DNA of 48,471 nucleotides. Origin: a virus. The DNA lies in the IMG/VR virus record IMGVR_UViG_3300002460_000047, positions 1 to 48,471 of that record, one strand, 5' to 3'. The translations under genes were made by a program, and so were the position numbers. Below the pieces are notes generated by a model, which was given only the letters and a program-made list of their open reading frames with translations, had not been told where the DNA came from and made no database searches. This document shows positions 9,945 through 48,471 of the stretch, in pieces; position 1 is the first letter of the stretch, and every line of letters begins with the position of its first letter.

Positions 9945-10117
9945 TAAGAACCCTCCTCTGTAATTTTATTAACAATACCCTTCGTTAAATCAAACAATTG
10001 TTTACATTCATCACTGCAAAATTCAAACTCTCCTATGTAATCAATTGCCCACCACTCTTCTTCCCAAATAGGGTTGTATAACTGGCAAGGGCACGGTAGA
10101 ATTCTTTTAAAGGCCAT
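9944..10117 (-). CDS. Hypothetical Cys-containing protein (57 aa), first gene of the early arm
   Basis: The track start at 10126 is GTG. ATG at 10115..10117 lies 8 nt downstream of AGAGGAG. Confidence 0.55.
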   Translation of the reverse strand: MAFKRILPCPCQLYNPIWEEEWWAIDYIGEFEFCSDECKQLFDLTKGIVNKITEEGS

Positions 10118-10197
10118 TATCTTCACTCCTCTTTAATTCTTGCCTACTTTGAGAGCCTAGGTAGGCACTAGGTATAGAGGATACTCTCATACCATTA

Positions 10198-10225
10198 ATA
10201 ATACCATACCTATTAAAAAATACAA
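10198..10225 (-). promoter_or_regulatory. Candidate early leftward sigma70-type promoter
   Basis: On the minus strand, TTGTAT - 16 nt - TATTAT, about 80 nt upstream of the first early gene. It overlaps the 13-mer direct repeats. Confidence 0.3.
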
Positions 10226-10243
10226 GCCCTCTATTAAAAAATA
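10210..10243. repeat. Two copies of CTATTAAAAAATA spaced 21 bp apart
   Basis: Exact 13-mers at 10210..10222 and 10231..10243, two helical turns apart, overlapping the candidate early promoter. Confidence 0.8.
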
Positions 10244-10308
10244 TCTTTTAAGGCTATTTTAAGGTAGAGTAAAAATTATCAGTGTCTAAAATATATTTAT
10301 TTACCCCA

Positions 10309-10337
10309 TTGACAAATAAAGGATTATGGTATATAGT
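10309..10337 (+). promoter_or_regulatory. Rightward sigma70-type promoter
   Basis: TTGACA (10309..10314) - 17 nt - TATAGT (10332..10337). Confidence 0.55.
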
Positions 10338-10343
10338 TAAGTA

Positions 10344-10800
10344 TTCAGGAGCAATATACGTATAAGGCTTTACTATGGGGTATGATTGTTCACTACCTTA
10401 CATAGCATTAGATAAGACAGTCTAATGATGCAAAAGACGAAGCCTAAGGATTACGAAACAGCCTAAAATGCATACTGGGGTTAAGAGCCCTGTCATCAAG
10501 GAAAGAGAAGATGGTTAACTGTCCATCACCTATAAAGCAAGGGTAGGTAAATACAGTGGCTGATAATATTATACGTAAGATAGGATATGAAATAATCAGG
10601 AGGATAGATCACATAGTAGTAATACTGTGTCCAGGTACTAAGGGAGAAGGGAGATAGACGATAAGGTTCTTGATTCTAACTTATTGTCTACCAGATATAA
10701 CTAGCTCTAAAGCATATAAAGCTGTACATTAGTAACAAGATAAGCTATATTATATGTATCCAGGAGCAAGGTATGTCTTTAGACGTAGTATGAAAAAGAG
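10344..10800 (+). ncRNA. Candidate structured non-coding transcript / long leader (about 460 nt)
   Basis: Lies downstream of the 10309 promoter. No ORF longer than about 16 codons has an RBS. Stems: 10406..10427 (7 bp), 10611..10630 (8 bp with G-U) and 10655..10690 (11 bp with one G-U that pairs only on the plus-strand RNA). Confidence 0.3.
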
Positions 10801-10811
10801 GAGATAGGACC

Positions 10812-10925
10812 ATGTTAAGTATATGTAAAATATGTAGAGATGAGATCTATTATACTCAAAGTTATGAAAGAGTATCTGATGGTTATGCTCATGTAGGATG
10901 TTTAAATGATTTATACGAAGATTAA
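10812..10925 (+). CDS. Cys-rich mini-protein (37 aa)
   Basis: Hand translation gives MLSICKICRDEIYYTQSYERVSDGYAHVGCLNDLYED. Preceded by AAGAGGAGATAGG. Confidence 0.45.
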   Translation: MLSICKICRDEIYYTQSYERVSDGYAHVGCLNDLYED

Positions 10926-10966
10926 AGAGTTGTGTAGCTTATATCCTAGTGGGGTAGTATTTATCT

Positions 10967-11152
10967 ATGCCTATATATGATTTTCAGTGCCCTGCGTGTG
11001 GTATTGTACAAGAAGTCTTACAAAAGAACTTTAAATCAGAGATACAACTCTGTGAATGTGGCGCTGAAATGGAAAAGATTACAGGGAGAACTAGCTTATT
11101 ACTTAAGTTTAAAGGTAAGGGTTTCTATGTTAATGATTATAAGAGGAAATAG
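10967..11152 (+). CDS. FmdB-family zinc-ribbon putative regulatory protein
   Basis: MPIYDFQCPACG...CECGAEMEKI matches the FmdB / CxxC_CxxC_SSSS pattern (MPxYxYxCxxCG). Confidence 0.6.
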   Translation: MPIYDFQCPACGIVQEVLQKNFKSEIQLCECGAEMEKITGRTSLLLKFKGKGFYVNDYKRK

Positions 11153-11155
11153 TAT

Positions 11156-11248
11156 ATGTTAATGACATTAGGTTTGGTTCTTCTTACGTTTGTTGCTTAT
11201 TGTGTCGTAGCTGCGGTACTCATTTGTTGCCTTATATTAAAGAAATAG
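11156..11248 (+). CDS. Possible 30-aa transmembrane micro-protein
   Basis: MLMTLGLVLLTFVAYCVVAAVLICCLILKK, with AGAGGAAA upstream. Confidence 0.35.
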   Translation: MLMTLGLVLLTFVAYCVVAAVLICCLILKK

Positions 11249-11260
11249 AGGAATACTATT

Positions 11261-11338
11261 ATGATAACCGTTATGTGCTTAGTTTATGTATATATTGTAG
11301 TTTTATTTATTTTAGGTTATCTTATCTTTAAAGAGTGA
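11261..11338 (+). CDS. Possible 25-aa transmembrane micro-protein
   Basis: MITVMCLVYVYIVVLFILGYLIFKE, with GAGGAA upstream. Confidence 0.3.
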   Translation: MITVMCLVYVYIVVLFILGYLIFKE

Positions 11339-11626
11339 TTATTTCTGTTTTACTACAACCTCTAGATTAAGATTGTGCATATCTTTGATAAACTTCTTAT
11401 GATTACATATCTTAATATTTTTGTTTGTTACCTCTTCATGGATTACACAGTATCCGTAGTGATCTTGTAACCAACGTTTCACAATAGCCTTAGCTTGATC
11501 AGAAGATTCTAAACTACCTTCAACATGGTCGTATATTGTGATAAATACGTTATGTTCTTGATGATCTTTTTTAAGCTTAACTATTTGTAATGTAGGTATA
11601 AACCTATAATATTTGATAGTAGTCAT
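11339..11626 (-). CDS. Hypothetical protein (95 aa) with its own promoter
   Basis: ORF with AAGAGGAG upstream. It sits isolated in the control region, converging on the plus-strand mini-genes. Confidence 0.6.
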   Translation of the reverse strand: MTTIKYYRFIPTLQIVKLKKDHQEHNVFITIYDHVEGSLESSDQAKAIVKRWLQDHYGYCVIHEEVTNKNIKICNHKKFIKDMHNLNLEVVVKQK

Positions 11627-11651
11627 GATTAATACTCCTCTTTATACCTTC

Positions 11652-11679
11652 AGTATATACCTCTTATAAAAAATGTCAA
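11652..11679 (-). promoter_or_regulatory. Leftward sigma70-type promoter for 11339..11626
   Basis: On the minus strand, TTGACA (complement of 11674..11679) - 16 nt - TATACT (complement of 11652..11657). Confidence 0.5.
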
Positions 11680-11930
11680 TACCGTGTGTATTTTATCCTT
11701 TGTGTCGGATAAACATAGACTTATCCGTTATAGGGGATTGTCAACCTTATTCTATACATTGTCAACTAAATAAGTATACAATATTACTAATATTATTTAG
11801 TAATCAAGTACACATAATGGTCAATAGTTCATTCAATACGTGAACTACTGCTCAAAGTAAGTACTATCCGTTAATACCCTAATTATAGGGTTTATTGACA
11901 CACAGAAGGATATTGTGAGTGCCAATAGTG

Positions 11931-12108
11931 GTTATAACATATATAACAAAGCGGATGATATAGTATTACATATTCTATGTCGTGCCACTAATAAGATATG
12001 TATCCCCGGCACAACAGTACATACACATATATAATCATAGTATATACAATAGGTTATAACTATATGATTAATAGTGCATATGTCTACCAACTATCAATGA
12101 GTTATAAC
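11931..12108. repeat. Three copies of the palindrome GTTATAAC
   Basis: Copies at 11931..11938, 12053..12060 and 12101..12108, each followed by A/T-ATA. They flank a very AT-rich tract (12020..12050). Confidence 0.8.
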
Positions 12109-12191
12109 TATGCCCTTTAATGCTCCATTATCGCCCCTTTAGCCAGCGTAATGATGACCTAGTAGGTGACTACTAGTGCTACTAAGATCGT

Positions 12192-12221
12192 TTGACAGAG
12201 GTGATTTATTCTGCCTAGAAT
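12192..12221 (+). promoter_or_regulatory. Rightward sigma70-type promoter
   Basis: TTGACA (12192..12197) - 18 nt - TAGAAT (12216..12221). Confidence 0.45.
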
Positions 12222-12234
12222 AAGGTATTTTTAA

Positions 12235-12265
12235 CACCCCCTAGACCCCCCATAGGGGTGGGGTT
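12235..12265 (+). other. Conspicuous C-run/G-run interrupted hairpin
   Basis: caCCCCCtagaCCCCCCataGGGGtGGGG. The two C runs can pair with the two G runs. It starts about 10 nt after the predicted start site of the 12192 promoter. Confidence 0.5.
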
Positions 12266-12466
12266 GATTTGTAGTGGTATAGGTGGTCAGCTCTATACGA
12301 GGTCAAATTTTCAAGTAATCTTAAGGTTTTCTTAAGAAGAGTTTGTAATACTTGTAATCGACACATATGTCCATATTTGACATTACGAAGAGTGGGAACT
12401 AAAGGTAGTTATTGCTCGTAACTGTCAAAAAATGACAGTAAATAGAAAATATATTTAGATTACCTG

Positions 12467-12495
12467 TTGACAATATTCATTTTATCTGCTACACT
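12467..12495 (+). promoter_or_regulatory. Rightward sigma70-type promoter (candidate late-operon promoter)
   Basis: TTGACA (12467..12472) - 17 nt - TACACT (12490..12495). It is preceded by the hairpin 12422..12438. Confidence 0.55.
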
Positions 12496-12499
12496 TACT

Positions 12500-12960
12500 A
12501 CAAGTGGTGAAATATTGTACTAAAATTACTTAATAAATTTCATCATGAAGCCTCCGGTTGTGGGATAAGTCAACTATGACGCTAGGAAACGAGACTAGTG
12601 ACTCGGGAGAACAGAACCTACGGGCGTGAAGAACGCATTAGTCCCTATAAAGAGGGATATTTATAAGGGCAGATAAACGCTGCCCACTTTTAACTTAGTG
12701 GCTACCTTTATGGTAGCCATATGTATTATCTGGGGGAGATGCTTAGGGCAAGCCTAAAATTTCCTCTAATTGAGGATAACCACGAACCCACTGGTATTAG
12801 GCACGAGTTACGCTGTACTAGGTTCAGTCAGCAATCCTTCCTTAACAAAGAAGGATAGAATTACTCTATAAGTCCTGTCCTCAAGAATAATAACGTTCGC
12901 TATTCGCGAACCAAAGATAACACTAAGTGTCACTTTATGTAACTAAATGGGTAAAATAAT
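12500..12960 (+). ncRNA. Candidate structured leader / ncRNA upstream of the late operon (about 460 nt)
   Basis: No RBS-preceded ORF. Perfect stems at 12667..12685, 12699..12719 (8 bp), 12834..12856 (7 bp) and 12895..12911 (6 bp). G/C content is visibly higher than in flanking genes. Confidence 0.3.
12667..12691 (+). terminator. Terminator-like hairpin inside the late leader
   Basis: GGGCAG-ataaacg-CTGCCC followed by acTTTT. It lies between the 12467 promoter and the first late gene. Confidence 0.35.
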
Positions 12961-12969
12961 AAGAATAAT

Positions 12970-13374
12970 ATGCTCCCAATCTTAGAAACTGCATTAGGAT
13001 CTCTTTTTAAAGGAATAGTCGACAAATTCTTCCCTGATAAATCAGAATCGGAAAAACGCCGAATTGCTGCTGAAATGGCACGCGAAGCACAGCAATTTGA
13101 GCTTTTAAAAGGGCAGTTAGACATAAATAAGGTAGAGGCCGCTAATCCAGATAAATTTATATCTGGCTGGCGCCCCTTTTTAGGTTGGGTGTGTGGATTT
13201 GGTTTAGCATGGGCATGGGTTATTATGCCCATTTTTAATTGGTTAATAGTCATATTAGGATTTCCGGCACCAGAGTTGCCAAAATTTAATACCGAAGAGT
13301 TAATTGCTATGTGTGTCAGCTTATTAGGGTTAGCAGGCTACCGCACGGTTGAAAAAATAAAAAGAAGAGATTAA
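12970..13374 (+). CDS. Holin, 3-TM gene-transfer-agent type (PF11351-like)
   Basis: The N-terminal amphipathic region, INKVEAAN...FISGWRPFLGWVCGFGLAWAWVIMP and the hydrophobic segments match the remembered family pattern (N..EA...F.aGWRP..GW). Confidence 0.5.
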   Translation: MLPILETALGSLFKGIVDKFFPDKSESEKRRIAAEMAREAQQFELLKGQLDINKVEAANPDKFISGWRPFLGWVCGFGLAWAWVIMPIFNWLIVILGFPAPELPKFNTEELIAMCVSLLGLAGYRTVEKIKRRD

Positions 13375-48200: not shown

Positions 48201-48440
48201 TTATATTAATTCTTTATAACCACCATCTAACTTCTTATGCTCTGTACTTTCCTCACTTTCTTTACTTAAAGAAGCCGCGCCCTCTAATAACCACTTATAC
48301 TCATACCCGGCCTTTACCAACAAATGAAATAACCCATTTACAAAATTATGAGCATTAGAAGACTTGTTTTGTACTAATTCAAGCTCCATATTAACTTTAT
48401 ACGTTGAATAATTTGTCGAACTGGTAATGGTAATTTTCAT
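48201..48440 (-). CDS. Hypothetical protein (79 aa)
   Basis: ATG at 48438..48440, preceded by AAGAGGTAAGA. Its start and RBS lie inside the terminal repeat, directly after the stop of the 67..243 gene in the circular map. Confidence 0.55.
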   Translation of the reverse strand: MKITITSSTNYSTYKVNMELELVQNKSSNAHNFVNGLFHLLVKAGYEYKWLLEGAASLSKESEESTEHKKLDGGYKELI

Positions 48441-48471
48441 TCTTACCTCTTTTAATAAATACATCTATATA
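48386..48471. repeat. Terminal direct repeat, copy 2 (identical to 1..86)
   Basis: Exact 86-bp match to the window start. Confidence 0.95.

Follow-up and report, generated by a model that had tools for sequence, protein, structure and literature searches.

A putative long, purine-rich 5' untranslated leader with ribosome-binding-like motifs at the divergent control point of an uncultured phage genome

The plus-strand interval 10344-10811 of this phage genome is read here, tentatively and with somewhat less than even confidence, as a long, purine-rich 5' UTR of the small-gene operon at 10812-11338; in this reading, the leader opens with an orphan SD and a three-way junction and closes with coupled micro-ORFs. 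Taken as a whole, the leader looks like mostly unfolded mRNA dotted with ribosome-binding-like motifs rather than a new structured RNA, and the leader behind the 10309 promoter belongs to a familiar type, a few of its details being statistically odd. In the mechanism we propose, the host sigma-70 RNA polymerase probably transcribes the leader from a strong, UP-element-assisted promoter at a divergent control point, and the transcript would work at the RNA level, chiefly by means of its ribosome-binding-type motifs rather than any elaborate conserved fold. If true, a phage would here combine a non-initiating SD stabilizer with coupled micro-ORFs, at the master point of divergent control in an uncultured lineage. 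It would also aid the reading of early-gene control in metagenomic phages and might provide a portable 5' UTR part.

The window, that is, the whole stretch of DNA that was analyzed, is an IMG/VR record that holds a complete virus genome of 48,471 bp (GC content of 34%; mean, 33.7%). An exact 86-bp repeat occupies both record ends (1-86 and 48386-48471). Despite its look of a direct terminal repeat, the simplest reading suggests a circular assembly overlap, in which case the leftward genes form one unbroken block across the record ends. This block extends from 37855 through the record ends to 10126, and the rightward block runs from approximately 10812 to 37698. Since the two blocks part there, the 10309 promoter and its leader lie at the genome's single divergent switch. 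For the first leftward gene, an ATG at 10117 (AGAGGAG, 8-nt spacer) is a likelier start than the listed GTG at 10126. The control elements of the rightward side and the operon behind them are as follows.

10288..10308, plus strand: UP-element-like A/T block of 21 nt with the palindrome AAATATATTT, directly upstream of the -35 hexamer
10309..10337, plus strand: sigma-70-type promoter TTGACA-17-TATAGT, with 11/12 positions matching
10723..10751, plus strand: weak second promoter-like site TGTACA-17-TATATT (9/12), directly upstream of the second copy of a 24-nt repeat
10812..11338, plus strand: mini-gene operon behind the leader, four tiny genes in the ORF list

The rightward-facing promoter at 10309..10337 had been proposed in a preliminary description of this DNA, and the match at 11 of the 12 positions bears it out. 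Outside the long ORFs of the central control region, comparably strong sigma-70-like promoters were found only at 11679(-), 12192(+), and 12467(+). From the usual 7-nt distance to the -10 hexamer, transcription is predicted to start near 10343-10345. The block upstream of the promoter is repeated in the genome (10288-10315 versus 12446-12473; 79% identical, with the exact 12-mer AAAATATATTTA), and its spacing to the -35 hexamer is identical at the 10309 and 12467 promoters. The shared block looks like a UP element or a common operator. The minus strand of both copies also carries weak leftward promoters (TTGTCA-16-TATTTT, 9/12), in which the leftward -35 overlaps the rightward -35, an arrangement that would make back-to-back promoters. 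Farther upstream from the rightward promoter, at 10210-10243, the 13-mer CTATTAAAAAATA is present in two exact copies 21 bp apart, as phased A-tract repeats.

Downstream of the promoter, the interval is noncoding, and it is neither a gene nor a recent pseudogene by frame, codon usage, or protein similarity. The longest plus-strand stop-to-stop frame within 10338-10811 has 36 aa (table 11). This agrees with the earlier claim that the first ORF with a credible RBS starts only at 10812, given that no ORF of more than 36 codons lies between the promoter and that ATG. Reading the interval with genetic code 4 or with TAG as Q added no credible ORF, and a Pfam and PHROG search of its open frames matched no family. 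Codon usage was also evaluated by a log-odds score trained on the genes of the same phage; even when stops were ignored, the interval scored at background (0.03 to 0.15), versus 0.51 ± 0.17 for genes. Over the whole genome, ARAGORN reported no tRNA or tmRNA.

The composition of the interval is strand specific. Its plus strand is 60% purine, which corresponds to the 91st percentile among sense-strand windows, and has a GC skew of +0.23 (67 C versus 107 G) at a GC content of 36.7%, compared with the genome mean of 33.7%. GGAG occurs 6 times in 474 nt, versus 1.35 ± 1.24 in coding sense windows (top 0.8%) and 2.96 ± 1.5 in shuffles. The longer motif CAGGAG is found 3 times in the interval versus 15 times on both strands genome-wide (P of 0.001 against shuffles, for an enrichment spotted post hoc), and AGGA is found 9 times versus 3.3 expected. 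Two of the six GGAG copies are the RBSs of micro-ORF 1 and of the 10812 gene, and the remaining four lack a start codon at a distance suited to initiation. The following motif positions are referred to below.

10346-10354, plus strand: orphan SD-like motif CAGGAGCAA, inside the unpaired 5' tail
10643..10658, plus strand: tandem GGGAG motifs GGGAGAAGGGAGATAG, orphan SD-like, placed by their GGAG positions
10753..10776, plus strand: second copy of the 24-nt repeat, TATGTATCCAGGAGCAAGGTATGT, with CAGGAG as the SD for micro-ORF 1

The AGGAG at 10347-10351 is separated by 3-4 nt from the predicted 5' end, and the fold prediction leaves it unpaired. No ATG, GTG, or TTG is present 4-12 nt downstream of the 10346 motif, and ACG (10358-10360) occupies the place where the second repeat copy has ATG. 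The preliminary description had pointed out that CAGGAGCAA occurs twice; it is indeed present at 10346 and 10761, within a 24-nt direct repeat (10338-10361 and 10753-10776) that is 79% identical and brackets 391 nt. On sequence statistics alone, this repeat is not significant (P of 0.14). The second copy (10754-10776) may fold into a hairpin of 7 bp, 3 of them G-U, with the SD in its loop, and GGAGATAG, from the tandem GGGAG region, recurs as a real RBS at 10800. Another proposed link, the sequence AGCCTAAAAT shared by two noncoding blocks, was present at 10460 and 12751, but cross-alignment shuffles (P of 0.24) showed that chance alone would give the two blocks a 10-12-mer in common, and AGCCTAAAAT was rejected as a common element.

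A pattern scan of IMG/VR with TTGACA-N16-18-TATADT-N4-12-YCAGGAGCAA returned 24 unrelated phage contigs, and in most of them an ATG lies within about 12 nt of the motif. Since the promoter plus YCAGGAGCAA is usually followed by an ATG elsewhere, the arrangement belongs to a genuine type of promoter-RBS cassette, found here without a start codon. A highly conserved cassette, aaacaaaatttaaaata-TTGACAATAACGG...TATAAT...TCAGGAGCAA...ATG, was also observed in the unrelated IMG/VR phages L055, L057, L059, L060, L062, L067, and L072, and it is present twice in some contigs of this family.

Relatives were sought in IMG/VR with the 546-aa protein, the portal, the 114-aa neighbor, the holin, the Zn-ribbon protein, and two DNA patterns, as well as in metagenome contigs with TerL and in bacterial genomes with the portal. 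The nearest relatives found share 30-53% amino acid identity in the portal, TerL, holin, or 546-aa protein, with none closer than about 40-50% in the portal or TerL. A DNA search of phage and plasmid collections gave no match, and the bacterial genomes searched with the portal gave no relative. By blastn and nhmmer, the relatives' loci showed no similarity to 10100-13000, and the small neighboring genes are not conserved in the relatives, save for a Zn-ribbon homologue in L004 (IMGVR_UViG_3300033121_000824). At its divergent point, this one syntenic distant relative carries identical promoter hexamers with identical spacing, followed by a 34-nt leader. In L004:6146-8444, the order is TTGACA-17-TATAGT, a GTA-type holin (34 nt on), a 67-aa membrane protein, the Zn-ribbon homologue, and a second promoter (TTGACA-17-TACTAT), followed by a roughly 364-nt ORF-poor leader before TerS. 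The gene order places the holin on the opposite side of the late promoter compared with the present phage. In the other relatives, the leaders of strong promoters span 25-197 nt, which, together with the 34 nt of L004, indicates that a long leader is neither required nor conserved in this phage group.

These comparisons bear on a different reading of the interval, as evolutionary debris, in which small early gene(s) or an inserted segment, their start codons and reading frames now lost, left remains behind, the promoter reads through, and the orphan SDs are fossil RBSs. We consider this reading unlikely, although several observations speak for it. Triplets one mutation away from ATG follow orphan SDs at normal spacing (ACG at 10358, ATA at 10613, and ACG at 10659), each of them with an open frame of 14-24 codons behind it; such triplets at such spacing, however, are likely by chance. 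In other phages, promoter plus CAGGAGCAA normally forms part of a promoter-RBS-ATG module, and L004 has a gene 34 nt behind the same promoter hexamers, but the interval shows no similarity to the L004 holin or to any protein family and no leftover codon usage signal. An insertion or duplication would leave direct repeats such as the 24-nt copies around the 391 nt, and most of the interval is no more structured than random. Nevertheless, 470 nt of useless DNA is rarely kept in a compact phage genome, and the strand-specific purine excess is above that of real genes. A decayed holin in the interval was considered separately and rejected, since tblastn gave no signal to the holin that occupies the equivalent place in L004.

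The folding of the leader was evaluated on both strands. The structures and regions concerned are listed below.

10344..10364, plus strand: predicted single-stranded 5' tail of 21 nt, unpaired in the MFE and centroid structures
10365..10445, plus strand: predicted three-way junction, with the closing helix 10365-10371/10439-10445 and the hairpins 10373-10404 and 10406-10427 inside
10406-10427, plus strand: hairpin stem of 8 bp with 1 G-U, from the stem search, inside the three-way junction
10446..10650, plus strand: purine-rich middle part, holding the third CAGGAG (10597) and the 10611-10630 hairpin
10510..10527, minus strand: weak terminator-like hairpin, a 5-bp stem and then TTCTCTTTCC, from the terminator search
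10611-10630, plus strand: hairpin stem of 8 bp with 1 G-U, from the stem search, in the purine-rich middle part
10655..10690, plus strand: hairpin with an 11-bp stem, 1 G-U, and a 14-nt loop, from the stem search

The stem search recovered all three of the stems described previously, at 10406..10427, 10611..10630, and 10655..10690. Nevertheless, the claim that they mark a structured noncoding RNA was only partly borne out. Stems of at least 7 bp number 6 in the leader, versus 3.9 ± 1.9 in dinucleotide shuffles (P of 0.21), which is a chance-level count, and a stem of at least 11 bp occurs in 5% of shuffles, so that the 11-bp stem is borderline (P of about 0.05). When 100-nt windows were folded (24 per strand), only 10350-10449 (z of -2.6) and 10700-10799 (z of -2.3) stood out, most being near 0, and as a structure only the 5' domain stands out. 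The 5' fold (10344-10450; junction at 10365-10445) has a predicted energy of -25.7 kcal/mol (z of -2.82; 0/200 shuffles as stable; MFE frequency of 0.32), its window being one of several tried, with few windows at z < -2 among many. In contrast, the middle part (10445-10660) folds like random sequence (z of -0.08 and -0.14).

An RNA-level function had also been argued from the G-U pairs, which leave the minus strand at a disadvantage. The plus strand does fold better: the whole leader has a z of -1.85 (antisense strand, -0.47), the stems with a G-U pair are 1-3 kcal/mol less stable on the minus strand, and the 10655-10690 hairpin changes from -13.0 kcal/mol (z of -2.9) on the plus strand to -10.4 kcal/mol (z of -2.4) on the minus strand. 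However, two of the three stems still fold on the minus strand (z of -2.4 and -1.7), and one G-U per stem is weak evidence for RNA-level function. An Rfam 15/Infernal scan of the whole genome gave no match, and in a permissive scan of 10100-13000 the only hit was Termite-leu at 16.5 bits (threshold of 51; E of 4.4). A plus-strand search for intrinsic terminators over 10338-10811 found none; the 10655-10690 hairpin is not an intrinsic terminator because no T-run follows it. The lack of a plus-strand terminator in the leader counts against attenuation or antitermination of the trp-, lambda nut-, or HK022 put-like kind.

The folding results and the motif counts are both relevant to a stand-alone, trans-acting RNA, which would be either a processed 5' UTR-derived sRNA or a sponge titrating the 30S subunit or an RNA-binding protein via (Y)CAGGAG or via the junction. 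Such a role strikes us as improbable. [quoted passage not shown] However, no terminator or obvious processing site delimits a short RNA, and complementarity to the translation-initiation regions of the phage is no better than in shuffled controls. In addition, no Rfam family was matched, and a covariance model of the 5' domain recovered only the domain itself when run against the genome and 42 related or fetched loci. A sponge of the CsrB/RsmZ type was rejected because GGA is not enriched in the interval (11 versus 9.0 ± 2.5 expected) and only the 10761 CAGGAG lies in a predicted hairpin loop.

In the untranslated-leader reading that we prefer, the accessible orphan CAGGAGCAA and the compact junction would together bind the 30S subunit and block 5'-end-dependent decay, as in STAB-SD-type stabilization. 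The G-rich, C-poor, purine-rich, and weakly structured body, with its further orphan SD-like motifs, would offer little for Rho loading. A comparable system is the cry3A leader of Bacillus thuringiensis, which has 558 nt and a non-initiating SD near its processed 5' end (Agaisse & Lereclus 1996; PMC4113751). In this STAB-SD, the bound 30S subunit was proposed to block 5'-3' decay by RNase J1 (PMC4113751). Like cry3A, the present leader spans several hundred nucleotides and has an SD-like sequence near its predicted 5' end without a start codon. Unlike cry3A, it contains several other orphan SD-like motifs, and the two leaders are not homologous in sequence.

Two other phage systems provide points of comparison. 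In virulent Pseudomonas phages, 5' UTR-derived ncRNA candidates mapped by ONT-cappable-seq are common; they are mostly <250 nt, are associated with premature terminators in the 5' UTR, and are conserved in close relatives (bioRxiv 10.1101/2023.10.13.562163). The present leader resembles them in that untranslated sequence behind a phage promoter may give rise to a regulatory RNA besides mRNA, and it differs from them in having no plus-strand terminator. The early leader of T7 combines the tandem host promoters A1-A3 with some hundreds of untranslated nucleotides before gene 0.3. The present leader likewise has a strong predicted promoter for host RNAP, a long untranslated stretch, and a weaker second promoter-like site inside (10723-10751). 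In contrast to T7, this second site matches at only 9/12 positions, the leader showed no long duplex of the RNase III type, and the two phages belong to unrelated groups.

At its 3' end, the leader carries the two micro-ORFs listed here.

10773-10793, plus strand: micro-ORF 1 (MSLDVV*), with AGGAG, a 6-nt spacer, and ATG
10790-10807, plus strand: micro-ORF 2 (MKKRR*), with an ATGA overlap with micro-ORF 1

Two micro-ORFs of 5-6 codons upstream of 10812 were part of the preliminary description, whose approximate coordinates differ from the measured ones by small offsets only. The SD of the 10812 gene (GAGGAG, 10798-10803) lies within micro-ORF 2, whose stop codon is 4 nt short of the ATG at 10812. 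A weak 7-bp pairing (3 G-U) is predicted between the micro-ORF 1 codons at 10774-10780 and the main SD at 10800-10806 (z of -2.25 for 10750-10830). A leader-peptide role for these putative micro-ORFs is plausible. If translated, the coupled micro-ORFs would run into the RBS of the first mini-gene and could open the weak pairing that covers it. The products of the operon behind them are a 37-aa Cys/His mini-protein, a 61-aa protein (10967-11152) assigned to Zn_ribbon_8 (E of 6.9e-10), and hydrophobic peptides of 30 and 25 aa.

The position of the interval in the genome also raises the question of a role at the DNA level, as a replication origin or transcription-activated origin (cf. the T7 primary origin and ColE1 RNA II) or as a buffer between the convergent promoters 10309(+) and 11679(-). 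We assign such a role a low probability. The cumulative GC skew of the whole genome reaches its minimum at ~10,100-10,400, as would suit an origin, but the skew switch is fully accounted for by the switch in gene orientation. Immediately upstream there are phased A-tract repeats (10210-10243); the interval itself, however, is not AT-rich (36.7% GC versus the genome mean of 33.7%) and contains no iterons. A convergent leftward transcript from the 11679(-) promoter could end at the weak minus-strand hairpin (10527-10510), which would place the end of an antisense transcript inside the interval, whereas the strand-asymmetric purine load and the G-U-dependent stems fit RNA better than DNA.

A second leader of the same length is present in the genome.

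12496-12969, plus strand: leader of the late/packaging operon, downstream of the 12467 promoter

At both the 10309 and the 12467 promoters, exactly 474 nt separate the -10 hexamer from the first start codon (10337-10812 and 12495-12970), and the offset between the two promoters equals the offset between the two ATGs, 2158 bp. Besides its length, the late leader shares with the 10309 leader the UP-like block plus TTGACAA module, and it differs in having two terminator-like hairpins versus none. Homology of the two 474-nt leaders was rejected, since they are not alignable and their identity in register (31%) is at background. A more ambitious reading, of a phage regulatory RNA of ~470 nt, would draw on this match in length to the late-operon leader (474 nt). 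In such an RNA, start-codon-less (Y)CAGGAG and GGAG(G)ATAG repeats would bind the 30S subunit or an SD-recognizing factor early, and the 5' junction would be a stability or recognition module; we regard it as very doubtful.

The opposite end of the operon shows a layout of its own. The two hydrophobic mini-peptides at its 3' end (11156-11248, 30 aa, and 11261-11338, 25 aa; both on the plus strand) have near-identical RBSs. A 95-aa gene under the strong 11679(-) promoter faces the operon, and a convergent transcript from this promoter (11679-11652, minus strand) would be antisense to both mini-peptides. This arrangement is reminiscent of type I toxin-antitoxin pairs or of small membrane effectors.
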